NCBI GenBank assembly: GCA_035575515.1
Contig: DATLXU010000127.1
Span: forward strand, 97,356 to 161,355
DNA: 64,000 bases
Direction: 5' to 3'
Source of the DNA: Blastocatellia bacterium
GTDB taxonomy: Bacteria; Acidobacteriota; Blastocatellia; UBA7656
Part shown: positions 9,189 to 45,263 of the stretch, piece by piece
Numbering within the stretch: the stretch's first letter is position 1
Layout of the letters: every line of letters begins with the position of its first letter
Position numbers and translations under genes: made by a program
Notes under the pieces: model-generated
Database searches by the model: none
The model's input: only the letters and a program-made list of their open reading frames with translations
What the model was told of the DNA's origin: nothing

Positions 9189-10400
9189 ATGCAGACTATG
9201 CGAGCGGTAAAGGAGCAGAAGAGCAAAGCCGGATACATCATAGCGACGCTCTCAATCGCAGCCGCGACCGCCGCGCTTAAATTGTTCGGCAGCCATATCA
9301 ATTCAACAACAGTCGCGCTCGCGCTGCTGTTGATTGTTCTGTTCGTTGCAACTCGATGGGGATCGCGCCCCGCCGTCGTCGCTTCATTGCTCAGCATGGT
9401 TTGCTTCAACTATTTCTTCCTTCCGCCGGTGGGCACGTTGACCATAGCGACGCCCGACAACTGGGTTGCGCTCGCCGCGTTCTTAATCACCGCCGTCACC
9501 GCCGGAGAGCTTTCGGCTCGCGCAAGGCGGCGCGCCGAAGAGGCCGAAGCCGGACGGCGCGAGATCGAGCGTTTATACAGTGAGCTTCAAGACGCATTCG
9601 AGCGCGCAAGCTATGCGGAAGCTCTCAAACGTAGCGAGCGGTTGAAATCGGCTTTGTTAGACGCCGTGACGCATGACATTCGCACGCCGCTCACTTCCAT
9701 CAAAGCGTCCGTTACGACACTGCTCGACGAGTTGCGCGCAATGACAGGTGAAGCGGTCGCGCTCGACGCGGAAGGCCGCAGAGAGATGCTTGAAATAATT
9801 AACGAGGAAGCGGATCGGTTGAATCGTTTTGTCGAAAACCTTCTGGAGCTTGCGCGCATAGAAGCAGGCGAGATGCATCTCAGGCGCAGGTGGGGAGCGA
9901 TTGACGAGATAGTGCTTGCGGCGCTTGAGCGAGCCGAGCCGCTCACACGCCGTCACCGGATTGAAGCGGCTGTCGAGAACGAATTGCCGCTGGCGCGCGT
10001 TGACGGGCGAGCCGTTGCTGAAGTCCTTTATACTCTCATTGACAACGCCGCGAAGTATTCTCCGGCGGGCACGCGCATACGGGTTACGGCCAGTCGAGTT
10101 GATGAGAAGCTATTGCAGCTGTCGGTTGAAGATGAAGGGCCGGGCATTCCCGTTGAGATGCGCGAGCGCGCCTTCGATAAATTCTTTCGCGCAATGCGTG
10201 ACGGCGACTCAGGCGCGGGCCGCGCTTCGGGCGTAGGGATGGGACTGGCAATTGCGCGAGGCATTATCGAGGCGCACGGTGGGCGCATCTGGATTGAAGA
10301 TGGAGAGAACGGGCGCGGGACTCGCGTCGCGTTCACGTTGCCGGTGGGCAATGAAGAAGAAATTGCTCTGGAAGAATTGAAGCAGATCAGCTCCCGATGA
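9189..10400 (+). CDS. kdpD: KdpD C-terminal half: four-TM domain plus HisKA/HATPase sensor kinase; no KdpD N-terminal or Usp domain
   Basis: N-terminal TM bundle typical of the KdpD membrane domain, then H-box THDIRTPL and N/G boxes (GTRVAFTLP); adjacent to kdpE. Confidence 0.75.
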
Positions 10401-10520: not shown

Positions 10521-11222
10521 ATGAACGAAAAGAAGCGCATTCTAATCGTCGACGACGAGCCGCAGATCACGCGCGTGCTCAGGCGCAGCCTGACCACGCA
10601 CGGCTACGACGTGCGCAGCGCCGCCGACGGTGAAAGCGCGCTTGAAACGTTCGGCGATTGGCCCGCCGATCTTGTCGTCACTGACCTTGCGATGCCGAAT
10701 GTCAATGGCATTGAGCTATGCCGACGATTGCGCGCTTTGTCGCGGGTTCCGATCATCGTGCTCTCGGTTCGCGGCGAAGAGCAGATGAAGGTTGAAGCGC
10801 TGGATGCGGGCGCGGATGATTATGTGACGAAGCCCTTTGGCATGGACGAGTTGCTTGCGCGCATCCGGGCGGCGCTGCGCCGCGCGCCTGAGGCTCACGC
10901 CGATGGCGAAGCTCTAACGATTTTGAAAGCGGGCGATTTTCGCGTTGACCTCGCAGCGCGCATCGTCACGGTCCAAGGCCGCGAAGTTCGCCTCACGCCG
11001 AAGGAATTCGACCTGCTGGTTTATATGATCGGCCACAGCGGAAGAGTTTTGACGCACCGCGCGCTGCTTGCCGCCGTGTGGGGCGGCAACTACGTCGAAC
11101 AGCACGAATATCTGCGTGTTTTCGTCGGGCAACTGAGAAAAAAGATTGAGCCAGACCCGGCCTCGCCGCGCTACATCCTGACAGAGCCGTGGATAGGTTA
11201 TCGGTTCAATCCCGGCGCGTGA
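10521..11222 (+). CDS. kdpE: OmpR-family response regulator KdpE
   Basis: Receiver domain (ILIVDDEP...DLAMP) plus winged-helix (LTPKEFDLL...GYRF); lies between the kdpD kinase half and the kdpFABC operon. Confidence 0.85.
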   Translation: MNEKKRILIVDDEPQITRVLRRSLTTHGYDVRSAADGESALETFGDWPADLVVTDLAMPNVNGIELCRRLRALSRVPIIVLSVRGEEQMKVEALDAGADDYVTKPFGMDELLARIRAALRRAPEAHADGEALTILKAGDFRVDLAARIVTVQGREVRLTPKEFDLLVYMIGHSGRVLTHRALLAAVWGGNYVEQHEYLRVFVGQLRKKIEPDPASPRYILTEPWIGYRFNPGA

Positions 11223-11261
11223 AACTCTCCTGTTTGTCCCGCATCAATCCTTACGAACTTT

Positions 11262-11292
11262 TTATAATCATTTTACTCCACCCTTACGCGCC
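11262..11292 (+). promoter_or_regulatory. Candidate KdpE operator (TTTATA-N5-TTTACT direct repeat) and promoter for the porin-kdpFABC operon
   Basis: TTTATAatcatTTTACTcc mirrors the E. coli kdpFABC KdpE box TTTATActtttTTTACAcc; followed by ccttacgcgc, which is also conserved at the second site at 21875. Confidence 0.5.
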
Positions 11293-11294
11293 CG

Positions 11295-12884
11295 GTGCTA
11301 GCCTGTGAATGTGACGAGGTCCTGCAAGGAACTGCGGCCAGCCGACGCGCTGGGGAGATGAAAATGGGGATAAAATTGTTGGCAGCAGCTTTCGCCATCG
11401 CGATGGTTGTTTTGTTGTGGCTGCGCGAATTCATCCTCAGCATTGGAAAAAAGAAGAAAGCTGGCAGTGTCCACGAGGTGCTCGTCGTGCGCGCAGAGGA
11501 TGAAAGAAGACCGCCAGAGCGCGCAGATGTGGAAGAGAGTCCAGACGAAGTTCAGCCCGACGCTTCATCGGTTGAGATTGAAGAGTTTCTTGCCGAGCTT
11601 CGCGCGAAGGCGCAAGACAAGCCGCGCAAGAATAACTCTCTTTTCTTGATAGCCATCCCGGCTCTAGTTGCAAGCTGGTTGCCTGCTGCGGCTTCAATCT
11701 GTCGCGCTCAAAGCTCTAGCATCAAGATAGGCCCGGTCGTTTCTGACAAGACTAATTCCGGCAAGTCGTTACTCGATAATGCGGTCGCTGAGGAAGTAGC
11801 GTCTCAAGAACCGCAGAAACAGCAGTCGAAGCCTGAATGGAACTATGGTGGCTTCGTGGATGTTGGCTACTCGCTCGATTTCAACCATCCGGCAAATCTG
11901 TTTTTCCGAAGTCGCGGTACCGCTTGGCACGTCGATAACTTGTATCTGAATATAGCGGGCGCATATGTGAAGAAAGATCCCTCCGAATCTTCACGATGGG
12001 GCGGTCAATTGACAGTCCAAGGGGGGAAAGATTCCGAGGTTTTTGGGTTCTCCGCAACGGCTCCAAACATCGGAGGTTTCAAAGTCCTTCGCCACCTCGG
12101 TCCAACAAATGTGTCTTATCTTGCGCCTGTGGGCAAGGGACTCACTGTGCAGGGTGGAATCTTCGGCAGTTTGATCGGCTACGACTCGCTCTACGCCAAG
12201 GATAATTTAGAATATACCAGACCGTGGGGAGCCGACTTCACGCCGTATTTGATGATGGGCGTCAACGCGAGTTATCCCTTCAACGAGAAGCTCACCGGCG
12301 CGTTCTTCGTGATCAATGGATACTGGCATCTGGCCAACGCGAACAGTGTCCCTAGTTCGGGTGGCCAACTTGCCTATAAGGCAAGCCCGCGCGTGACAGT
12401 GAAGGAAACGGTTCTTTGGGGGCCTCATCAGTCGAACACCTCATTCAAGTTCTGGCGCTTCCTTACGGACACCATTGTCGAATGCAAGACAGATCGAGTT
12501 ACTTTTGCATTTGAATACATCTACTCGTCGGAACGTGTTGACGCTCTTGGAACGCCCCGCGCCTTGATGATGGCTGGCCAGTTGCCGGTGCATTTTGCTT
12601 TGAACAAACGGTGGAGTGCAACCGTTCGACCTGAGGTTTTCTGGGATCGCAATGGCCGGTGGACCTTAGCCAGGCAGACCGTCAAAGCCATCACGACTAC
12701 GCTCGAATATCGCATCCCGTACCGACAAACCAATACGATCCTGCGGCTGGAGCACCGGTATGACGATTCGCGGGGGCCAGATGGAGGCTTCTTCAGAGGT
12801 GCTGAAGTACAGCCAGGCATGGTCGGCTTGACGCCAACCCAGCACCTTTTGATTTTCGGGCTGCTCTTCACGTTCGACCGCTAA
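11295..12884 (+). CDS. Predicted outer-membrane beta-barrel porin co-transcribed with kdpFABC; start codon uncertain (11364 preferred)
   Basis: C-terminal ~380 aa show alternating amphipathic beta-strand patterns ending in the aromatic terminus LLFTFDR; the N-terminus is unusual (TM-like segment, acidic linker, second hydrophobic segment). Confidence 0.5.
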   Translation: MLACECDEVLQGTAASRRAGEMKMGIKLLAAAFAIAMVVLLWLREFILSIGKKKKAGSVHEVLVVRAEDERRPPERADVEESPDEVQPDASSVEIEEFLAELRAKAQDKPRKNNSLFLIAIPALVASWLPAAASICRAQSSSIKIGPVVSDKTNSGKSLLDNAVAEEVASQEPQKQQSKPEWNYGGFVDVGYSLDFNHPANLFFRSRGTAWHVDNLYLNIAGAYVKKDPSESSRWGGQLTVQGGKDSEVFGFSATAPNIGGFKVLRHLGPTNVSYLAPVGKGLTVQGGIFGSLIGYDSLYAKDNLEYTRPWGADFTPYLMMGVNASYPFNEKLTGAFFVINGYWHLANANSVPSSGGQLAYKASPRVTVKETVLWGPHQSNTSFKFWRFLTDTIVECKTDRVTFAFEYIYSSERVDALGTPRALMMAGQLPVHFALNKRWSATVRPEVFWDRNGRWTLARQTVKAITTTLEYRIPYRQTNTILRLEHRYDDSRGPDGGFFRGAEVQPGMVGLTPTQHLLIFGLLFTFDR

Positions 12885-12895
12885 GGATCCGGGTA

Positions 12896-13096
12896 GTGGA
12901 GGTGACAGAACTTTACACAGAGCTTAAAGCGCGACACGAGGCCGGCATATCGGAGTGGTCTCTGGTAAAGCGAATGGCGGAGGTCTTCGTCAAAGACCTT
13001 CGTTACTACATAGATTTCCTTATGGCTTGCTTTCTAGTCTGGCGTGAATTGCGCCGCGAGAGGGAAAGCGCAAAGAACAAGGATATTGCGGGGTAG
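12896..13096 (+). CDS. Hypothetical small protein between porin and kdpF
   Basis: 66-aa ORF with no recognisable family; coding status uncertain. Confidence 0.2.
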   Translation: MEVTELYTELKARHEAGISEWSLVKRMAEVFVKDLRYYIDFLMACFLVWRELRRERESAKNKDIAG

Positions 13097-13190
13097 ACAT
13101 GGGAGACATCATCTTCATCGCGCTGACAATTGTTTTCTTCGCCTTGTCCGTCTGGTACGTCCGATTCTGCGAAAAGGTGTAGGAGCCAAG

Positions 13191-13283
13191 ATGACGAATA
13201 TCGAATACATAATCAGCGGAGTAATTGCCCTGCTGTTGCTCTTTTATCTGATGTACGCGCTACTCAAGCCAGAGAGGTTTTAG
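13191..13283 (+). CDS. kdpF: Potassium-transporting ATPase subunit F
   Basis: [30 protein letters not shown], cf. E. coli KdpF MSAGVITGVLLVFLLLGYLVYALINAEAF; missed by the 60-aa ORF cutoff. Confidence 0.8.
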
Positions 13284-14155
13284 AGCGTGTTGAGAAATTA
13301 GAGGAGAGGCAGTGGAAATGGGTAAACTGTCATTGCCATGAACCGCACAACCCTATCCATCTGACCTCTCCGATGAGCAGTGGAAACTGCTCGAACCTAT
13401 GTTACCACCTGCGGTTCCTGCGCGGTCGCAAGCGAACGGTGGATTTGCGCGAAATTGTCAACGCTATCCTTTACCTGCTGCGGACGGGTTGTGCTTGGCG
13501 TTATTTGCCTCACGAGTTCCCCGAGTGGACGACCGTTTATTATTACTTGCGGTTGCTGGCGCGACTTAGACTGGTTCGCCAAACTCAACGGCGAATTACG
13601 CAGCCCGCATCCGCAGGGCTTACGGACGCGACCGTAGACCCTAGCGCCGCCATCATCGATTCGCAATCGGTAAAGACGACCGAGCACGGGCGGCGAAAAA
13701 GGCTATGACGCGGGCAAGAAAGTCAATTGGCGCAAGCGTCATATCCTGGTCGATACCTTGGGCTTGTTGCTCTCGGTCAAAGTCTTGGCAGCCAATATCC
13801 AAGACCGCGGGGAGCGCGAAAGCCTTACTCGATGAAGTCAAAGAACGACCCCCGCGCCTCCACTTGATCTGGGCCGATGGCGGCTATGGCGGCAAGTTGA
13901 TTACTTGGGTAGCGACGAAGCGGTTTGTGGTTATTGCAAGTCGTCAAGCGCACAGATGACGTCAAAGGCTTCGTGGTTTTGCCCAGACGATGGGTCGTTG
14001 AACTTGCCCTTCGGCTGGCTGGGTCGCCCGCCGACGATTGAGCAAAGACTATGAGCGGCATTGTGAATCCTCCGAGTCGTTTGTTTATCTGGCGATGATT
14101 CACCTGATGCTCAAGCGGTTGAAGCCTATGCGAACTTAATTTCTCAACACGCTCT
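13284..14155 (+). mobile_element. Decayed IS5-family insertion sequence with perfect 19-bp terminal inverted repeats, inserted between kdpF and kdpA
   Basis: Left IR AGAGCGTGTTGAGAAATTA (13282-13300) and right-end reverse complement TAATTTCTCAACACGCTCT (14137-14155); internal reading frames encode transposase fragments. Confidence 0.8.
13363..14133 (+). pseudogene. IS5-family (DDE) transposase disrupted by at least four frameshifts
   Basis: [16 protein letters not shown] / [30 protein letters not shown] / [14 protein letters not shown] / [24 protein letters not shown] / LIWADGGYGGKLI / [18 protein letters not shown] lie in three different frames. Confidence 0.8.
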
Positions 14156-14160
14156 TAGAT

Positions 14161-15936
14161 ATGACTATCAACGGTTGGTTGCAAATCCTGTTATTCCTCG
14201 CGGCAATCTTGCTGGTCACAAAGCCGCTCGGTGTCTATATGGCGCGAGTGTTTAATCGCGAGAAAACGTTTCTCGATAGGGTGTTGCGCCCAATCGAACA
14301 ACTTATCTATCGCCTGACTCGCGTTGACGAATCGCGCGAGATGCGCTGGACCGAGTACGCCGTCGCGATGCTACTGTTCAGTGCCGTCTCGATGGTGGTG
14401 CTATACCTACTTCAGCGGCTTCAAGGTGTGCTGCCTTTCAACCCACAGAACCTGTCAGGCGTCGGAGATCATTCATCTTTCAACACAGCCGCGTCGTTCA
14501 CGACAAACACCAACTGGCAAAGCTACGTGCCAGAAACGACGATGAGCTACCTGACGCAGATGGCCGGGCTCGCTTATCACAATTTCGTCTCTGCCGCGGT
14601 CGGCATCGCACTCGCCATTGCCTTCATTCGTGGCATCGCCCGGCGCGAGAAAGACACAATCGGCAACTTCTGGGTTGACTTTGTGCGCTGCACCCTCTGG
14701 GTGCTTGTCCCGTTCTGCGTAATCGGCGCGCTCGCGCTCGTCTCGCAGGGCGTCGTACAAAACCTCAAACCTTATGACACGGCGAAGCTCGTCGAGCCGC
14801 TGACGGTAGAAAAAGAGTTGGAGGATGGCAGGAAAACTACGGAGACAGTCATCGAGCAGGTGATAGCTCAAGGGCCTGTCGCGTCGCAGGAGATAATCAA
14901 AGAGTTGGGCACAAACGGTGGAGGGTTCTTCAACGCCAATAGTGCGCACCCGTTTGAAAATCCCACGCCGCTTGCGAACTTCATAGAACTGTTTGCCATC
15001 TTCGCCATCTCTTCGGGGCTTACTTACACGCTAGGGCGAATGACCGGCTCGCAGCGACACGGTTGGGCCGTGTGGGGAGCGATGGCCGCGCTGTTTCTGG
15101 TCGGAGTCGCAGTCAGCTACTGGTCAGAAGCGCGAGGCAACCCGCTGCTTGCGGGCACTGACCAGACCGTAAGCGCGATGCAATCGGGCGGCAACATGGA
15201 AGGCAAAGAAGTCCGCTTCGGCATTGCCAACTCTGCGCTGTTTGCAACCGTCACGACCGACGCATCGTGCGGTGCGGTCAACTCGATGCTTGACTCATAC
15301 ACGCCGCTCGGCGGGCTTGTGCCGCTTACAAATATGATGCTCGGCGAAGTCATATTCGGCGGCGTCGGCGCTGGTATGTACGGCATTCTGATTTTCGTAA
15401 TACTTTCAGTCTTCATCGCGGGATTGATGGTCGGTCGCACGCCTGAATACTTGGGCAAGAAGATTGAAAGCTATGACGTGAAGATGGCGATGCTCGCCGT
15501 GCTGATCTTCCCTCTGACAATTCTCATACTGGCGGGCATATCGGCAATCTCGCCGTCGTTTGGCACATCGAGCATCTTAAATCCCGGCCCGCATGGGCTT
15601 TCAGAGATTCTTTACGCTTACACTTCCGGCACTGGCAACAACGGCTCTGCGTTCGCAGGGATTTCTGCCAACACGCCCTGGTACAACACGACAATTGGGC
15701 TGGCGATGCTTATCGGGCGATTCCTGATAATCATCCCGATGCTTGCTGTCGCGGGCAATCTCGGTCGCAAGAAGATAGTGCCGCCATCGCTCGGAACGTT
15801 TCCCGTAACGACGCCGCTGTTCACGGCGCTGCTCGTCTCGGTGATCGTGATTGTTGGTGCATTGACTTTCTTTCCTGCGCTGAGCCTTGGCCCCATTGTT
15901 GAACACTTGCTGATGGGAGCGGGACAAAGTTTCTGA
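14161..15936 (+). CDS. kdpA: Potassium-transporting ATPase subunit A
   Basis: [32 protein letters not shown]-terminus and selectivity-filter-like regions; 591 aa. Confidence 0.9.
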
Positions 15937-15944
15937 GGTCGAAC

Positions 15945-18004
<2,060 letters not shown>

Positions 18005-18008
<4 letters not shown>

Positions 18009-18562
18009 AAAACTTTGTGACGGCTATATTGATGGCGATAGTGACGACGATTTTGCTTGGTCTGGTTTATCCGCTCGTCGTAACGGGACTCGCGCAGGTC
18101 ATATTCCCTGACAAAGCCAACGGGCAGTTGATCGTGCGCTATGGCACGGTCATAGGCTCGCGCATCATTGGCCAGCCTTTCGCATCGCCGCGCTACTTTC
18201 ATTCGCGGCCTTCTGCGGCGGGCGCGGGCTATGACGCGGGCGCGTCTTCAGGCTCGAATCTCGGCCCGACCAATAACGCTTTGATCGAGCGCGTGAAGAC
18301 GGATGTCGAAAGCCGACAAAAAGAGAATCCTAACGCGCCCGTGCCGATTGATCTGGTGACGGCTTCGGCTTCTGGGCTCGACCCGCACATCTCACCGGCA
18401 GCGGCAGAATTTCAGGTGCCGCGAGTGGCGCAAGCGCGCGGATTGAGTGTTGATGAGGTGCGCCGTCTTGTGCAAGAGCATACCGAAGGCAGGACGTTCG
18501 GGATATTAGGCGAGCCGCGCGTCAACGTGCTCGAATTGAACCTGGCGCTGGATAAAAAGTGA
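18005..18562 (+). CDS. kdpC: Potassium-transporting ATPase subunit C
   Basis: Single N-terminal TM helix plus [14 protein letters not shown], the KdpC signature; overlaps the kdpB stop. Confidence 0.88.
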
Positions 18563-18632
18563 AAAGTGAAAAGTGGATAACAGCGAGAAGCTTGCCTTAA
18601 CACTATTCACTATTCGCTTTTCACTATTCGAT
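18563..18632. repeat. Intergenic heptamer-repeat palindrome (aaaagtg)3 ... (cactatt)3
   Basis: aaaagtgaaaagtgaaaagtg ... cactattcactattcgcttttcactattc between kdpC and the downstream kinase. Confidence 0.6.
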
Positions 18633-20525
18633 ATGAATAGCCTGAGACAAAAGCTGGCACTGAGCTACGGGTTGCTGATAATCATTATCTTCGCCGTCAG
18701 CGCGTGGAGCATCTATCATCTTGTGACGCTTGGCCGGGCGATTGATGTAATACTGGTTAATAACTACAAGAGCATCGTCGCAGCCGAGAATATGAAAGAA
18801 GCTCTTGAGCGACAGGATTCCGCAGCGATGTTTTTCATCGCCAGCCACGCCGACAAGGCTCGCCAGCAATTTGAAGCGAACAGCCAAAAGTTTTCTCAGG
18901 AATTTGAAATCGCCGCAAATAACATCACCGAAAAAGGCGAGCCGGAAATCATCAACGACATAAACGCGAAGTATCAGGCTTACCGAAGCGAGCTTGAAAG
19001 TTTTCTCAACCCGGCAGCGACTCTAACAGCAGCCAAGCAGTCCAACATCTACTTTGAAAGGCTTGAGCCGCAGTTCATCGCAATCAAAGACAAGCTGGAC
19101 GACTTGCTGCGCCTCAACCAGCAGGCTATGGTCGCGGCCAACGACCGCGCCATTTCCGTATCGCAACGCGCGGAGATTTCGACCGCAGTAACGGCGGCGC
19201 TCGCGCTTGCTCTGGCTTTGATATTCGCGTGGCAATTCACGCGCTACGTCGTCACGCCAATTTCAACTCTCAGCCAGAAGGCACGGCTGATAGGTGAAGG
19301 CGACCTGGATCAGCGCATAAGCGTTTCATCAAAAGATGAGATAGGCGTGCTTGCTGCGGAGTTCAACCGTATGCTTTTACGATTGCGCGAGGCGCGCAAA
19401 TTCGATTATGGGCGATTGCTTATCGAGCAGAAAAAATCGGATGCGGTGATTGATTCTCTCTACGAGCCGGTGATAGTGACCGATGCGCGCGGCCACGTTA
19501 TTAAGATCAATCGCGCGGCCAGCCAGTTGTTCAGCAACGGCAATAAAGGCGACTTGGATTTTTCACTGTCGCAATTCACGGGGGGCGAGCGCATACTGCG
19601 CGTGGTGCGCGATGTTGTTGCGATGCAGCGGCCCGTCGCCGCCGAAGGCGAGGCTGCGCTTGTGCCAATCGAGGTAGGCGGAGCCGAGCGCAGCTTTCGA
19701 CTGCGCGCAACTCCCATGCGCGACTCTGACGGGCGATTGCTTGGCGCAGTCACGGTACTTGAAGATGTCACAGCCATAACAGAGGTTGACAGGCTGAAAA
19801 CAGAATTCATCTCCGTCGCATCGGGCAAGCTGCGCGAGCCGCTTCATTCGCTTCAACTCGCGCTTCATGCAGTCATCGGAGGCTACGCAGGCGAGTTGAA
19901 CGATCAACAAGCGGATATGCTCGTGACAGCGCAGGAGAATGCAGAGAAGCTCGAAGAGATGATGAATGACCTGCTTCAGTTGGCAGAGATTGAATCGGGC
20001 GCGCGACGGCTTTCAATTCAACGGCTCCGCCCCGTTGATCTGGCGCGCGCTTGCGTTGAGAGGTTTCGCCCTCTAGCTGAAAGCAAACAGATTAAACTTG
20101 AAAACAATGTCTGGCCTGACCTGCCGTGGGTTGTTGGCGACCGCGAAGCTGTCGCGCGCGTCTTTGATAACTTGCTGTCGAATGCTATACGCCACACAGG
20201 GCGCGGCGGGCGCGTCACGATTGAAGCAAGAGAGCGCGCTGGGCGAGTCTTTTTCAGCGTGCGCGATACGGGCGAGGGCATACCTGAAGAGCACCTGCCC
20301 GTTTTATTCAGTCGCTTCGCTCGCGTTGGCAATAAAGCGGGCAGCACTGGGTTAGGGCTGGCTCTGGTGAAACGATTGGTGGAAGCGCAGGGAGGGCAAG
20401 TCAGCGTCGAAAGTCGCGTGGGCGAAGGCTCGACCTTTACTTTCACGATGCTCGAAGGCGGCCCTGCAAGCGTCAGGAGCACTGACCAGACGCGGGGACG
20501 CGGAGACGCGGAGACGCGACGATGA
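18633..20525 (+). CDS. Sensor histidine kinase (TM-periplasmic-TM, HAMP, PAS, HisKA, HATPase); the ORF track allows an earlier start at 18573
   Basis: Two TM segments, HAMP (EFNRMLLRLREA), PAS-like region, H-box, N/G boxes (HTGRGG, GLGLALVK); 3' end encodes RGRGDAETRR from GC-rich tandem repeats. Confidence 0.8.
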   Translation: MNSLRQKLALSYGLLIIIIFAVSAWSIYHLVTLGRAIDVILVNNYKSIVAAENMKEALERQDSAAMFFIASHADKARQQFEANSQKFSQEFEIAANNITEKGEPEIINDINAKYQAYRSELESFLNPAATLTAAKQSNIYFERLEPQFIAIKDKLDDLLRLNQQAMVAANDRAISVSQRAEISTAVTAALALALALIFAWQFTRYVVTPISTLSQKARLIGEGDLDQRISVSSKDEIGVLAAEFNRMLLRLREARKFDYGRLLIEQKKSDAVIDSLYEPVIVTDARGHVIKINRAASQLFSNGNKGDLDFSLSQFTGGERILRVVRDVVAMQRPVAAEGEAALVPIEVGGAERSFRLRATPMRDSDGRLLGAVTVLEDVTAITEVDRLKTEFISVASGKLREPLHSLQLALHAVIGGYAGELNDQQADMLVTAQENAEKLEEMMNDLLQLAEIESGARRLSIQRLRPVDLARACVERFRPLAESKQIKLENNVWPDLPWVVGDREAVARVFDNLLSNAIRHTGRGGRVTIEARERAGRVFFSVRDTGEGIPEEHLPVLFSRFARVGNKAGSTGLGLALVKRLVEAQGGQVSVESRVGEGSTFTFTMLEGGPASVRSTDQTRGRGDAETRR

Positions 20526-20586: not shown

Positions 20587-21732
20587 ATGAGCCAGGTTGT
20601 TGACACACGACCGAAAGCAGAGTCGCTGCTTGCACGGCAGCAACAGGCGCGGCGCGCGTGGCTGCGATTGTATATCGGCGCGGCTCCTGGCGTCGGCAAG
20701 ACTTATCAAATGCTCGAAGAGGCGCATCTTCTCAGGCGACAGGGCGTAGATATAGTCATCGGCCTCATCGAGCCGCATGGCCGCGCTGAAACCATAGCTT
20801 TGATAGACGAACTTGAGCGCGTTCCGCTGCGCCGAATAGAGTATCGCGGCGTCACGCTTGAAGAGATGGACGTTGAGCGTGTCATTGCGCGCAAGCCCGA
20901 AGTGGTCATCGTTGACGAGCTGGCGCACACGAACGTTCCCGGCTCGAAACATCACAAGCGATATGAAGATGTGCTGGAAATACTTGACGCAGGAATCTCT
21001 TGTATCACCGCATTCAATGTACAGCACATAGAATCGCTCAACGATACCATCGCGCGCATAACGGGCGTTCGCGTGCGCGAGACGATACCGGATTATTTCC
21101 TGCGCCGCGCCGATGAAGTGGTTAACATTGATGTATCGGTTGACACGCTGCGCACGCGGCTTCGTCAGGGAAAGATTTACAGCATAGAAAAGATCGAGCA
21201 GGCGCTTGCCAACTTCTTTCGCAAGGGCAATCTATCTGCGCTGCGCGAGCTTGCGCTGCGCCAGGTTGCCGAAGATCAGGCTGCAAAGGCGCACGACTAC
21301 CGCGAGCGCGAGGGACTAGAGCAGGCGGCAATTCCTGAAAAAGTCATGGTCTGCATGTCATCGCGTAGCAGCGCAAAAAAACTCCTGCGCACAGGCTCGC
21401 GCATTGCCGGACGGTTTGCTTCGGACTGGTACGCGGTCTATGTCGAAACGCCTCGCGAGGAGCCTAGCCGTATCAAGCCAGAAGACCATGCGGCGCTGAT
21501 GGAAAACATCCGATTTGCCGAAGAACTGGGCGCGAAAGTGGTACAGCTCAAAGCGCGCTGGGTTGCCGACGCGCTCATCGAATTTGCGCGGCGCGAAGGC
21601 GTCACGCACGTTGTCTTCGGCCAATCGGCCCGCTCCCGCTGGGACATACTGCTACGCGGTTCGGTAATAAATCGCTTTCTGAACGAGGTGCGCGACGCGA
21701 CTGTGCAAGTCGTCCCGCTTTCTGAAGGATGA
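20587..21732 (+). CDS. kdpD: KdpD N-terminal sensor domain plus Usp domain as a stand-alone protein; no TM or kinase
   Basis: GAAPGVGKTYQML Walker-A-like motif of the KdpD N-domain, then a Usp-like C-terminal half (KVMVCMSSRSS...HVVFGQS). Confidence 0.8.
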   Translation: MSQVVDTRPKAESLLARQQQARRAWLRLYIGAAPGVGKTYQMLEEAHLLRRQGVDIVIGLIEPHGRAETIALIDELERVPLRRIEYRGVTLEEMDVERVIARKPEVVIVDELAHTNVPGSKHHKRYEDVLEILDAGISCITAFNVQHIESLNDTIARITGVRVRETIPDYFLRRADEVVNIDVSVDTLRTRLRQGKIYSIEKIEQALANFFRKGNLSALRELALRQVAEDQAAKAHDYREREGLEQAAIPEKVMVCMSSRSSAKKLLRTGSRIAGRFASDWYAVYVETPREEPSRIKPEDHAALMENIRFAEELGAKVVQLKARWVADALIEFARREGVTHVVFGQSARSRWDILLRGSVINRFLNEVRDATVQVVPLSEG

Positions 21733-21863
21733 AAAAGAGACGCGGCGACCCGAAGATGCGATAATATATTTGTGTCAAGCGCGCTGTCGCCGCGTCGCCC
21801 TATCGCCGCGTCTACGTGTCCACGCGTCTCCGCGTCGTTTCTTCCATTTACCTCGTCGCAATC

Positions 21864-21905
21864 TTTATGAAAACTTTATAAACTTTTTACGCCATCCTTA
21901 CGCGC
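21864..21905 (+). promoter_or_regulatory. Candidate KdpE operator: TTTATG-N5-TTTATA-N5-TTTACG direct repeats, upstream of small ORFs and the KimA-like gene
   Basis: TTTATAaacttTTTACGcc, then atccttacgcgc, nearly identical to the site at 11262-11292. Confidence 0.5.
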
Positions 21906-22027
21906 GAAGTCTTACCGTGATTATTTGAGAGACTGTATGAACCGCAAATCGCGCTCGCCTATTTTGCCTGCCATCATCTCTTTGTTGTGGAGATCGGGAT
22001 CAACTTTAACTGAAAAGAGTAACTGCT

Positions 22028-22201
22028 ATGGACCCGTTTGTAATTATATTTGCCGCGCTTCTGCTCATCGCATGGCTCGTAGCTGATGCTCACGATAGGC
22101 GCGCGAAGAGGAAGATTGAAAATGCGACGACAACGTCGCACAACCGCTCGGATGGGCAAGAGAAAAGCAAGCGCGCAGATAGAGCAACGCGAGACTCATG
22201 A
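22028..22201 (+). CDS. Possible small membrane protein (57 aa)
   Basis: MDPFVIIFAALLLIAWLVADAH... single TM then a basic tail; below the ORF-track length cutoff. Confidence 0.25.
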   Translation: MDPFVIIFAALLLIAWLVADAHDRRAKRKIENATTTSHNRSDGQEKSKRADRATRDS

Positions 22202-22219
22202 AACGGACTTTGAAAACCG

Positions 22220-22525
22220 ATGCTATCAATAGGTCGTGAAATCAACATAAGTCAAAAAGAAGTCGTTTGCCGCAAATGCCATTGGGAAGGCGCGGGCAGC
22301 CAGCTTTCAATCGGGTTGATTGAGATTGCCCACACGCAGATGTACCTTGCGGCCTATCGCTGCCCACAGTGCCACAGCTTCGATGTAAATCGCAAAGGCA
22401 AGCTGCTTGAGTTTCGTTTGCCCCGCGCGCTCGATTATCAGCAAACGGACGCAGCCACACGCGATGAAAACAGCAACGAAAACGAATCGCGAAAAGATAG
22501 AGGGACGACTCCTTTATGGAGATAG
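22220..22525 (+). CDS. Small zinc-ribbon protein (CxxC...CxxC)
   Basis: CRKCHWEG and CPQCHSFD Cys pairs; lies in the leader region of the KimA-like gene. Confidence 0.35.
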   Translation: MLSIGREINISQKEVVCRKCHWEGAGSQLSIGLIEIAHTQMYLAAYRCPQCHSFDVNRKGKLLEFRLPRALDYQQTDAATRDENSNENESRKDRGTTPLWR

Positions 22526-24939
22526 ACAGTATGGAGATAGACAGCCTTACGCCTAAGACTCCAACAACTCAGAATCGCGTCAGGGTAGTCGTCGCCACGA
22601 CCGTTATGCTTTCGTTCATTTCATTCTGGCGAGCGGCGGCTATTGTCTTAAACGATCTCGGCTCGTCTGCTTTTTATGTCGGCGGAATTGCAGAAAAAGC
22701 TGTGGGGCGAGCGGCTCCTTGGTTCATTCTCGGCGTGATGCTTTTCTCTTACGCCGTGCGCGCCGTTTACGTCGAATCGTGCGCGATGTTCACGCGCGGC
22801 GGCGTTTATCGCGTAGTGAAAGAAGCAATGGGCGGCACGCTCGCAAAGCTTAGTGTCTCGGCTTTGATGTTCGATTACATCCTGACCGGGCCGATTTCCG
22901 GCGTATCAGCAGGCCAGTATATAGTCGGCCTTGCCGCGCAAACCTTAACTTATCTCGGCCATCCGTTGAGTCCCCCTCAATCAACCGTCAATGCAATCGC
23001 GGCTGGTATAGCAGTTTTGATAACCATTTATTTCTGGTGGCGAAATACTAAAGGGCTGCACGAATCATCAGGCGACGCGCTGCGAATAATGTACGTCACG
23101 ACGGCTATGATCGTGATGCTGATAGTGTGGTCAGGCCTGACCATTCTCACCCAGCCCGATAAACGGAGATTACCACCCGCGCCCGTTGCCGAAAATCTTA
23201 GTTTCAATCGCGACGCCGTCGGCTGGCTGCCCAGTATCGCGCCCGGCGCATTGCGAGAGTTGCCGCAGGAAGCCGCACCCGCCGATTCGCCCGCGCCTGA
23301 CCAAACTGCAACTGAGCCGCGCTACGGCATCATCGAGAACGCGGGCGCGCTCTTGGGACTGATCGGAATCCTTATGGCTTTCGGCCATGCGTTTCTCGCA
23401 ATGAGCGGCGAAGAATCGCTCGCGCAGGTCTATCGCGAGCTTGAATACCCGAAGCATAAAAACCTGATGCGAGCCGGGCTTGTGATATTTGTCTACTCAC
23501 TGCTGTTCACATCGCTCGTATCGTTTTTCGCTTACGCAATCATCCCTGACGATGTGAGACCTCAGTATCTTGATAATCTCATCAGCGGCATCTCGATTTA
23601 TCTGATAGGCCCTATGCCGCTGAAGCTGTTGTTTCAAGCCTTCATCGTAATAGTAGGTTTTCTGATGCTTGCGGGCGCGATCAATACTTCGATCATCGGA
23701 TCGAACGGCGTGTTGAATCGTGTGTCGGAAGACGGCGTGCTGACGGACTGGTTTCGTGCGCCGCATCGCAAATACGGTACGACACACCGGATCATTAACC
23801 TGATAGTCGTCCTGCAACTTGTCGCCATCGTCGCCTCGCGCGGAAATACTTACACGCTCGGCGAGGCCTACGCGTTCGGCGTGATATGGTCGTTTGCATT
23901 CAAGGCGCTCGCCGTGCTTGTGCTTCGATTCAAAGACCGCTCGGGCCGCGAGTGGAAAGTCCCTTTCAACATTCGCCTCGACGGCAACGAGCTTCCAATC
24001 GGACTTGGCGTAATCACGACGCTGTTGTTTTCGGTCGCGGGAATAAACCTGATAACGAAAGAGGTGGCGACCGTAGCAGGCGTCGCTTTCACAATAGTCT
24101 TTTTCGTCATCTTCACAATCTCGGAGCGAATCAACCAGCGAAAGCTCGACCGATCAATTGCGGCGCTCGACCAGTTCAAGCTGCACTACGAGCAGAACGT
24201 GAGCATTGATACTGTGAACGTGCGACCCGGCAATGTGCTTGTCGCCGCGCGAGACTATAACACGCTCTCGCATCTCGACCTCGCGCTTGAGCGCATTGAC
24301 ACAGACGAGCAGGACATCGTTGTGATGACGGTAATGGTGATACGTGGGCGCGGGCGCGGGCGAGCGCGATTTGTACGATGCGAACCTGTTCACAGATTAT
24401 GAGCAGCGATTGTTTACGCGAGTCGTTGCGCTGGCCGAGCGACACGGCAAGCCCGTCAACCTGCTCGTCGTGCCGTCAACGAACGTCTTCGACGCAGTGG
24501 CGCAGACCGCGTTGCGATTGGATTCAGCCGAGATAATCACAGGGCTGTCGGCAAAGATGAGCGCCGCCACGAGCTTTCGCGCCGATTGGGCCAGGCGTGG
24601 GAGCGGTTGCCTGAAAAGCCTCGCCGCCAGGTTAAATACACCGTTGTAGAGCCGAGCGGTCACGAGCGCGTCTTTTATCTCGGAGCGCACGCGCCCCAGC
24701 TTACGGAAGAAGACATAAATCTGATTCACAAGATATGGCTTGAGGTGAGCAAGCTGCCGGCCCGCCGCAAGGTGCATCATCGCGACGTTGTGCGTGTGGC
24801 ATTAGAGCGGCTCGCGCGCGATCTGCGCGGGCAGACGGACGTGATGCTGGACTTTTACAGGCTGGAGCACAACGAGGGAAAAAAGATTGGCAGCCGGGTT
24901 GATCGGTCTGACAATAGCGATGCTGGCGGCAGAAAATAG
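22516..24939 (+). pseudogene. kimA: KimA-like APC-superfamily K+ transporter gene with two frameshifts in the cytoplasmic C-terminal domain
   Basis: The N-terminal 12-TM domain aligns by eye to B. subtilis KimA (GGVYRVVKEAMG...FDYILT vs GGAYIVSKENLG...VDYILT; NTKGLHES vs NLRGLSES). The intact frame ends at 24402, but the homologous domain continues in two other frames to 24939. Confidence 0.6.
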
Positions 24940-45082: not shown

Positions 45083-45157
45083 GGCGGCTATAGTTCAGTT
45101 GGTTAGAACGCCTGACTGTGGATCAGGAGGTCGTCGGTTCAAGTCCGACTAGCCGCC
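45083..45157 (+). tRNA. tRNA-His (anticodon GTG) with encoded G-1
   Basis: Hand-folded cloverleaf: G-1 opposite discriminator C, acceptor GCGGCTA/TAGCCGC, anticodon loop CTGTGGA, T-arm GTCGG-TTCAAGT-CCGAC. Confidence 0.8.
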
Positions 45158-45189: not shown

Positions 45190-45263
45190 GGCGGGGTAGC
45201 TCAGTTGGTGAGAGCGTGGGATTCATAACCCCAAGGTCGGGAGTTCAAGTCTCCCCCCCGCTA
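45190..45263 (+). tRNA. tRNA with CAT anticodon (Met, or Ile2 if lysidine-modified)
   Basis: Acceptor GGCGGGG/CCCCGCT (G1-U72), D-arm GCTC-AGTTGGTGA-GAGC, anticodon loop TTCATAA, T-arm GGGAG-TTCAAGT-CTCCC. Confidence 0.75.

Follow-up and report, generated by a model that had tools for sequence, protein, structure and literature searches.

Gene organisation at the kdp locus

The window, i.e. the whole stretch of 64,000 nucleotides from a Blastocatellia bacterium analysed here, contains a kdp gene cluster and a gene for a permease related to KimA. The regulatory genes and the protein-coding genes of the two units described below are on the + strand, and two short putative promoter regions, referred to as box 1 and box 2, are present upstream of the kdp operon and the permease gene, respectively. 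Two tRNA genes (45084-45157 and 45190-45263) are the sole Rfam matches in the window.

The gene at 10521-11222 encodes an OmpR/PhoB-family response regulator with KdpE as its best NCBIfam match, at 227 bits and thereby below the equivalog cut-off of 325 bits. Its stop codon lies 28 nt 5' of the first box 1 half-site. The E. coli KdpE structure 4kny is among its best solved relatives (E = 2e-58). Binding by E. coli KdpE requires R193, R200 and T215, the first of which typifies KdpE proteins (PMC3264566); all three residues are identical in the window KdpE as judged from the alignment to 4kny. The cognate sensor KdpD is split. A histidine kinase corresponding to its C-terminal half (9189-10400; DUF4118-HisKA-HATPase_c according to Pfam, and NCBIfam KdpD covering model residues 658-889) is encoded before kdpE, while the N-terminal KdpD sensor domain together with Usp is encoded after kdpC as a separate, non-kinase protein (20587-21732; Pfam KdpD and Usp, NCBIfam KdpD_non_kinase E = 6e-131). 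This arrangement is kept in the closest relatives, represented by loci L001, L004, L007, L008, L017 and L073. The same six loci have kept, at the same position, an extra sensor kinase gene, which in the window is located within the kdp operon (18573-20525; 4HB_MCP-HAMP-PAS-HisKA-HATPase_c according to Pfam).

Downstream of box 1, the first gene of the kdp operon encodes a BBP2 (OmpL-like) outer-membrane porin (11358-12884, with the start codon at ATG 11358 or 11364; Pfam PF07642, E = 1e-45). Porin homologues head the kdp operons also in L004, L045 and L037, and the porins of L045 and L011 were identified by Pfam as well. The porin gene is followed by a 66-aa ORF (12896-13096) that was not found elsewhere and, directly 5' of kdpF, by an ORF for a 27-aa hydrophobic peptide, p27 (13099-13182), with 63-74% identity (tblastn) to sequences in many Blastocatellia loci; p27 may be an extra small Kdp subunit. 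The kdpF gene (13191-13283; 30-aa translation) is conserved in the related loci and kdpA (14161-15936), kdpB (15945-18008) and kdpC (18005-18562) were identified by Pfam. Exactly between the kdpF stop and the kdpA start, where relatives have only about 110 nt, there is an IS5-family insertion sequence (13282-14155) with DUF4096 and DDE_Tnp_1 fragments and perfect 19-bp terminal inverted repeats. This element is not part of the regulon discussed below, and it may be polar on kdpABC or supply an outward promoter. Between the stop of the gene for the KdpD N-terminal protein and box 2, at 21740-21797, a GC-rich inverted repeat (GACGCGGCGAC ... GTCGCCGCGTC) together with related repeats may constitute a terminator or insulator between two transcription units.

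The second unit, downstream of box 2, begins with two small ORFs in the leader of the permease gene, which the initial annotation had placed under the same control as the permease. Conservation distinguishes the two. A 101-aa CxxC...CPxC zinc-ribbon protein, encoded directly 5' of the permease gene (22220-22525), is widely conserved (39-61% identity by tblastn in about 20 loci, with intact frames in L007, L004 and L050 and weak zinc-ribbon Pfam matches), whereas the 57-aa ORF with one transmembrane helix (22028-22201) is present only in the window and in L008 (38% identity over 39 aa). The latter ORF lies within a leader segment of approximately 225 nt that is absent from most relatives, and no other copy of the segment 21941-22215 was found in the window or the related loci.

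The permease gene (22516-24939) encodes an APC-superfamily protein (Pfam AA_permease_2) with a C-terminal alpha/beta domain. Its first ORF ends at 24402, and two frameshifts were detected in the part encoding the C-terminal domain, one near 24345-24365 in a GC-rich repeat and one near 24565-24580, after which the frame resumes to the stop at 24939. As a result of the two frameshifts the annotated 628-aa product is truncated, intact homologues being approximately 800 aa long, and the window copy is either a pseudogene or affected by a MAG assembly error. A sequence identical to this permease has been annotated in a Blastocatellia (Acidobacteriota) MAG. Given these frameshifts and the insertion sequence between kdpF and kdpA, the regulon may be partly non-functional in this genome, or the assembly may be imperfect.

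The "KimA-like" label given to the permease in the initial annotation holds insofar as KimA, which belongs to the KUP family of K+/H+ symporters, is its best solved relative, but the two are only distantly alike. A single-sequence phmmer search of the permease against PDB gave no match even at E <= 10, KimA included, while a profile built from 25 permease-family members matched KimA (6S3K) at 9.3e-16, with the next match at 0.011; the sequence alignment to KimA spans the membrane domain only. For the intact homologue P0013, the predicted structure (mean pLDDT 81) has KimA entries as Foldseek ranks 1-3 at only 16-17% identity in the structural alignment, and its predicted C-terminal alpha/beta domain comprises residues about 570-720. 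Cation-chloride cotransporters follow close behind KimA in Foldseek, so the fold alone does not discriminate between them. Identification as KimA by direct sequence search was rejected; KimA is reached solely through the family profile and the predicted fold.

With respect to the residues of the ion site, HMMER alignments show that KimA D36, Y43, D117, T121, S125, E233 and Y377 are conserved in the permease family, while T230 is replaced by S. Specifically, D36 corresponds to the invariant D44 and Y43 to F/Y50 beside the invariant Y51; the motif FDYILTGPIS covers D117, T121 and S125, MSGEE covers T230 (S) and E233, and GEAYAFG covers Y377. More distant members of the wider family have lost some of these residues. 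The roles of the KimA residues in K+ binding and proton coupling are taken from PMC6994465, and we infer that the permease transports K+ together with H+ (symport).

In Bacillus subtilis, kimA is under the control of a c-di-AMP (ydaO-type) riboswitch (KimA structure 6S3K; PMC6994465). The Rfam search of the window at the gathering threshold gave no match in the permease leader, and a permissive search of 21730-22560 gave none at E <= 1, the c-di-AMP riboswitch included. With both searches empty a leader riboswitch was rejected, in keeping with the initial proposal that the KimA-like gene is not riboswitch controlled.

Sequence and conservation of the two boxes

The two strings originally noted as KdpE boxes are both present on the + strand: TTTATAatcatTTTACTccacCCTTACGCGC at 11261-11291 (box 1) and TTTATAaacttTTTACGccatCCTTACGCGC at 21875-21905 (box 2), the start of box 1 having been placed one base late, at 11262 instead of 11261. 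Likewise, the third half-site claimed for box 2, TTTATG, is found at 21864-21869. The described E. coli-type architecture (TTTATA-N5-TTTACA direct repeats in an 11-bp register) also stands, but each box has four half-sites and not two or three. In box 1 (11250-11288) these are CTTACG (11250-11255), TTTATA (11261-11266), TTTACT (11272-11277) and CTTACG (11283-11288), of which the first, at the upstream end, had been overlooked. In box 2 (21864-21902) they are TTTATG (21864-21869), TTTATA (21875-21880), TTTACG (21886-21891) and CTTACG (21897-21902). The tail cc..ccttacgcgc reported as common to both boxes is found at both, and the fourth half-site lies within it (11283-11288 and 21897-21902, respectively). 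Ten nt after the fourth half-site there is a predicted -10 hexamer, TAGCCT at 11299-11304 in box 1 and TACCGT at 21913-21918 in box 2, with putative transcription starts near 11311 and 21925. The full modules hence read CTTACG-N5-TTTATA-N5-TTTACT-N5-CTTACG-N10-TAGCCT (11250-11304) and TTTATG-N5-TTTATA-N5-TTTACG-N5-CTTACG-N10-TACCGT (21864-21918).

The pattern TTTAYR-N5-TTTAC has exactly two matches on both strands of the 64-kb window, and these are the two boxes. The mean expectation from 100 dinucleotide-preserving shuffles was 0.06 and none of the shuffles reached two matches. For the 31-nt pattern common to both boxes the expectation is 0.00.

Relatives of the permease were taken from 80 genomes, and the 10-kb flanks around each permease gene are referred to as the related loci. 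In a dozen of these loci a simple regular expression already matched immediately 5' of the permease gene, which revealed that the motif is longer than initially described. The module consists of four YTTAYR half-sites in an 11-bp register followed by 10 bp and TAnnnT, in total 55 nt. A 62-nt matrix was refined on the upstream regions of the permease-anchored loci and applied to 2.54 million positions (80 related loci and the window, both strands), giving 54 instances at >=30 bits and only five more between 10 and 30 bits. All 54 are located upstream of, and on the same strand as, a K+-related gene. Across these instances the half-site cores show little or no variation at their T and A, and 53-54 of the 54 have T51, A52 and T56 of the -10 hexamer. 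In the window, box 2 scored 72.8 bits, box 1 61.6 bits and the next independent position -10.1, and a search for further boxes with a two-half-site sub-matrix yielded only overlapping registers of the two boxes together with weak matches in coding regions.

The scores of the permease upstream regions are bimodal. Outside the window 40 of 81 permease genes have the module at >=30 bits (41 of 82 above 25 bits when the window's own is included), and the remaining genes score below 25 bits. Among the module-bearing permease genes, 29 of 40 also have kdpE or the gene for the KdpD N-terminal protein less than 1.6 kb upstream, and in the related loci the permease gene is found directly downstream of either kdpFABC-kinase-kdpDN, as in the window, or a kinase-kdpE pair. 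The half or so of the permease homologues that do not have the module include MAGs labelled Terriglobia, NC10 and Thermodesulfobacteriota. Aligning box 2 with seven relatives showed the module as an island of conservation, with the sequence 5' of it unalignable, and orthologous sites for box 1 were identified in L015, L005, L011, L026 and L027. The module is conserved across the class Blastocatellia.

In three loci from more distant, Acidobacteriota-type/Terriglobia-type, bacteria (L037:2988, L040:9909 and L060:4429), a KdpE-like gene with about 50-59% identity lies directly 5' of the permease gene, and the short intergenic region has other, TTTTAGG-like repeats in 11-bp phase, which suggests that the wiring is the same and the half-site putatively diverged.

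The orthologous sites also bear on the origin of the two boxes, which the initial annotation had seen as a duplicated promoter module. That the two copies would result from a recent intragenomic duplication, be the remnant of a mobile element or have arisen by chance, and so share no regulatory meaning, gains some weight from the unusually long identical tail in the window (CCTTACGCGC). However, each copy has its own orthologues, its own spacer and its own -10 (TAGCCTG for the box 1 type, TAC(C/G)AT for the box 2 type); for example, L015:2759 has CGCCCGGTGCTAGC in common with box 1, while L001:9578 resembles box 2. Recent duplication is excluded because the orthologues of each copy have copy-specific spacers. 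Moreover, the sequences beyond the module are unrelated, the boxes are not flanked by inverted repeats or transposase genes, and the chance expectation is about 0. The description as a duplicated module was consequently abandoned, and a recent duplication or mobile element was rejected given the single leader copy, the unrelated flanks and the separate orthologues. Also considering the recurrence of the module on at least 120 metagenome contigs, with a gene of the K+ set downstream in 92 of 98 cases among the matches listed (see below), we regard this whole explanation as barely credible.

Genes linked to the module in metagenomes and the identity of the regulator

A degenerate pattern of the module, which matches 40 times in the related loci and the window, was scanned over metagenome contigs without using any gene as reference. 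At least 125 matches on at least 120 contigs were obtained, and five of the matches listed are AT-rich low-complexity tandem repeats. Among the matches listed with >=600 nt of downstream sequence, and with the low-complexity ones removed, a recognised gene of the set follows the module in 92 of 98. For those listed with >=2.5 kb downstream, kdpFABC, true KimA, the KimA-like permease or Kup was found in 46 of 51, and kdp regulatory genes alone in two more of the 51. As permease-anchored loci were the source of both the matrix and the scan pattern, any bias favours the permease gene and not kdp, KimA or Kup. The module is followed by a full-length orthologue of B. subtilis KimA in L026 (E = 1e-144 to 6S3K) and by ORFs similar to KimA in L027 and L032. 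On one metagenome contig (L122) it precedes a canonical Kup transporter with the VFGDIGTSPLY motif, and the regulon can hence also include Kup.

The first genes 3' of the module often encode small proteins of unknown function or porins, the latter being BBP2 or a 243-aa outer-membrane protein. Three recurrent, unannotated protein families were noted. The putative 243-aa outer-membrane protein (L020:9025-9756) comes first after the module and precedes kdpF; a family of approximately 150-170 aa with an LTENGF motif (L026:2945-3466, L045:12704-13156 and L053:8383-8886) comes first after the module, usually before KimA or the permease; and a membrane protein of about 95-125 aa (L020:8760-9041) is encoded by the first gene after the module in other contigs. 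None of the three families has a Pfam match.

As to which protein binds the array, kdpE is the gene directly upstream of the module in 69 of 87 of the metagenome matches listed that have enough upstream sequence. We considered whether another OmpR/PhoB-family regulator, e.g. an unlinked partner of the 4HB_MCP-HAMP-PAS kinase, might bind instead of the adjacent KdpE. The kdp operon does include this extra sensor kinase without a linked response regulator, the window KdpE falls under its equivalog cut-off (227 vs 325 bits), and direct repeats of 11 bp are a general feature of the OmpR/PhoB family (PMC3264566). On the other hand, the half-sites agree with the experimentally defined E. coli KdpE half-sites and the KdpE-specific R193 is kept; moreover, among the related loci and the metagenome matches listed, no second response-regulator gene recurs at the module and the extra kinase is missing from most module-bearing loci. 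Because of the kdpE linkage and the conserved R193 we judge a different regulator very unlikely, and take KdpE as the probable ligand of both boxes.

Placement of the KimA-like gene in the KdpE regulon, as first proposed from the window, is in agreement with these data: the half-sites equal those of the E. coli operator, the KdpE binding residues are kept, the module is conserved and the metagenome scan returned K+ genes, all of which argue that the permease gene is probably a member.

Promoter architecture and proposed mode of activation

On the + strand, a consensus promoter scan of the two boxes gave no sigma-70 -35/-10 pair, and a canonical sigma-70 promoter was accordingly rejected. Relative to the predicted start, the half-sites are located at about -61, -50, -39 and -28, the array ending at -23, such that half-sites 3 and 4 (about -39 to -34 and -28 to -23) overlap the -35 and spacer region. 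Both boxes show the features of a pho-box-like promoter, i.e. 11-bp repeats over the -35 region, a conserved -10 and no -35 hexamer. The -10 and start-site assignments are predictions from sequence conservation.

OmpR-family regulators can repress from positions overlapping the -35 and spacer regions, and the location of half-sites 3 and 4 would fit a KdpE that binds the array yet mainly represses or acts as a dual switch, with these half-sites (-39 to -23) occluding RNA polymerase. Nevertheless, neither promoter has a -35 hexamer, the absence of which is a hallmark of activator-dependent promoters, and in PhoB-activated pho boxes the last repeat ends 10 bp upstream of the -10, the very geometry seen here. 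In addition, kdpFABC, an operon that has to be switched on when K+ is limiting, is preceded by the same module, and KdpE activates kdpFABC wherever this has been studied (PMC3264566). Repression or dual switching thus appears quite unlikely, and we consider it probable that both boxes are activator-dependent promoters of a KdpE (potassium-limitation) regulon. It is from sequence that we infer KdpE binding, activation rather than repression, the start sites and the response to K+.

In the mechanism that we propose, the split KdpD sensor, i.e. the KdpD-N/Usp protein together with the DUF4118 kinase, would phosphorylate KdpE at low K+, and the extra PAS kinase may contribute. The four half-sites offer room for two tandem KdpE dimers, and KdpE~P would occupy the array from about -61 to -23, standing in for the absent -35 contact in the manner of PhoB at pho boxes. 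Taking the absence of a -35 pair together with the pho-box geometry, two KdpE~P dimers would recruit RNA polymerase instead of a -35 contact. From box 1 KdpE~P would start a first unit, porin-p27-kdpF(IS)ABC-kinase-kdpDN, and from box 2 a second unit comprising (orf57), the zinc-ribbon protein and the KimA-like K+/H+ symporter. Via the two boxes KdpE most likely switches on both the Kdp pump and the KimA-related importer.

The resemblance to E. coli concerns the half-sites and the regulator. The kdpFABC KdpE operator of E. coli is TTTATA-N5-TTTACA at -72 to -50 (PMC3264566), and E. coli-type half-site pairs are present in both boxes (TTTATA-N5-TTTACT at 11261-11277 and TTTATA-N5-TTTACG at 21875-21891). 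As in E. coli, the half-sites are TTTAYR direct repeats with an invariant T/A core, a 5-bp spacer and an 11-bp register, and the operator lies 5' of a kdpF...ABC operon together with a regulator having R193, R200 and T215. In E. coli, however, there are two half-sites for one dimer, upstream of the core promoter, whereas the four present here come within 10 bp of the -10, and a -35 is missing; the array does not have the single-site E. coli-type position (-72 to -50), its last half-site ending 10 nt before TAnnnT (relative to the predicted start). The operator differs from that of E. coli also in that it would serve KimA, the KimA-like permease, porins and the kinase-kdpE operon.

Regarding the mode of action, pho boxes overlap the -35 region (PMC2695467), and the present arrays resemble the PhoB pho boxes (E. 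coli pstS) and the 11-nt arrays of Streptomyces PhoP in that 11-bp repeats overlap and replace the -35 (PMC2695467, PMC2275107). The number of repeat units is variable and even in both cases, and, as for PhoB/PhoP, one operator type would define a nutrient-starvation regulon including a high-affinity transporter, a porin and the regulator's own operon. Unlike in pho boxes, the half-sites are of the KdpE type instead of CTGTCAT, the regulator resembles KdpE, and presumably K+ rather than phosphate serves as the signal.

As for B. subtilis kimA, the gene of a K+ importer expressed when K+ is scarce, the genes predicted to be regulated here comprise true KimA orthologues and a distant family with the same ion-site residues. 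In contrast to B. subtilis, there is no detectable leader riboswitch and control is predicted to occur at transcription initiation by a two-component regulator, and the intact homologues, of approximately 800 aa, have a different, larger C-terminal domain than B. subtilis KimA. Our literature search returned no report linking KdpE to kimA regulation, and KdpE ChIP-seq in Caulobacter gave another motif, with kimA not among the targets.

KdpE is usually described as governing essentially one operon for K+ homeostasis. What is new is that the predicted KdpE regulon has more members and that its operator is built like a pho box. On balance we lean towards a general scheme for the Blastocatellia, where a four-half-site KdpE operator over the -35 region would drive envelope-wide K+ scavenging by dedicated porins, KdpFABC, canonical KimA and the hitherto uncharacterised, approximately 800-aa KimA-related family with its zinc-ribbon partner; KdpDE would replace the c-di-AMP riboswitch logic of Firmicutes for kimA-type genes, and do so in a PhoB-like class II mode rather than the upstream-site mode of E. 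coli. The same operator would define a multi-operon K+ regulon over a whole class of abundant soil bacteria. Moreover, it provides a testable prediction of K+/H+ symport for a large unannotated group of "APC family permease" proteins, as well as testable functional predictions for the zinc-ribbon partner and several recurrent small proteins of unknown function, and from the position of the module, K+ limitation would seem to induce specific outer-membrane porins. In the annotation of Acidobacteriota metagenomes, the sharply defined 55-nt module can be used as a marker of genes responsive to K+. Finally, KimA-type transporters are apparently under different control depending on phylum, either that of a riboswitch or that of a two-component activator.
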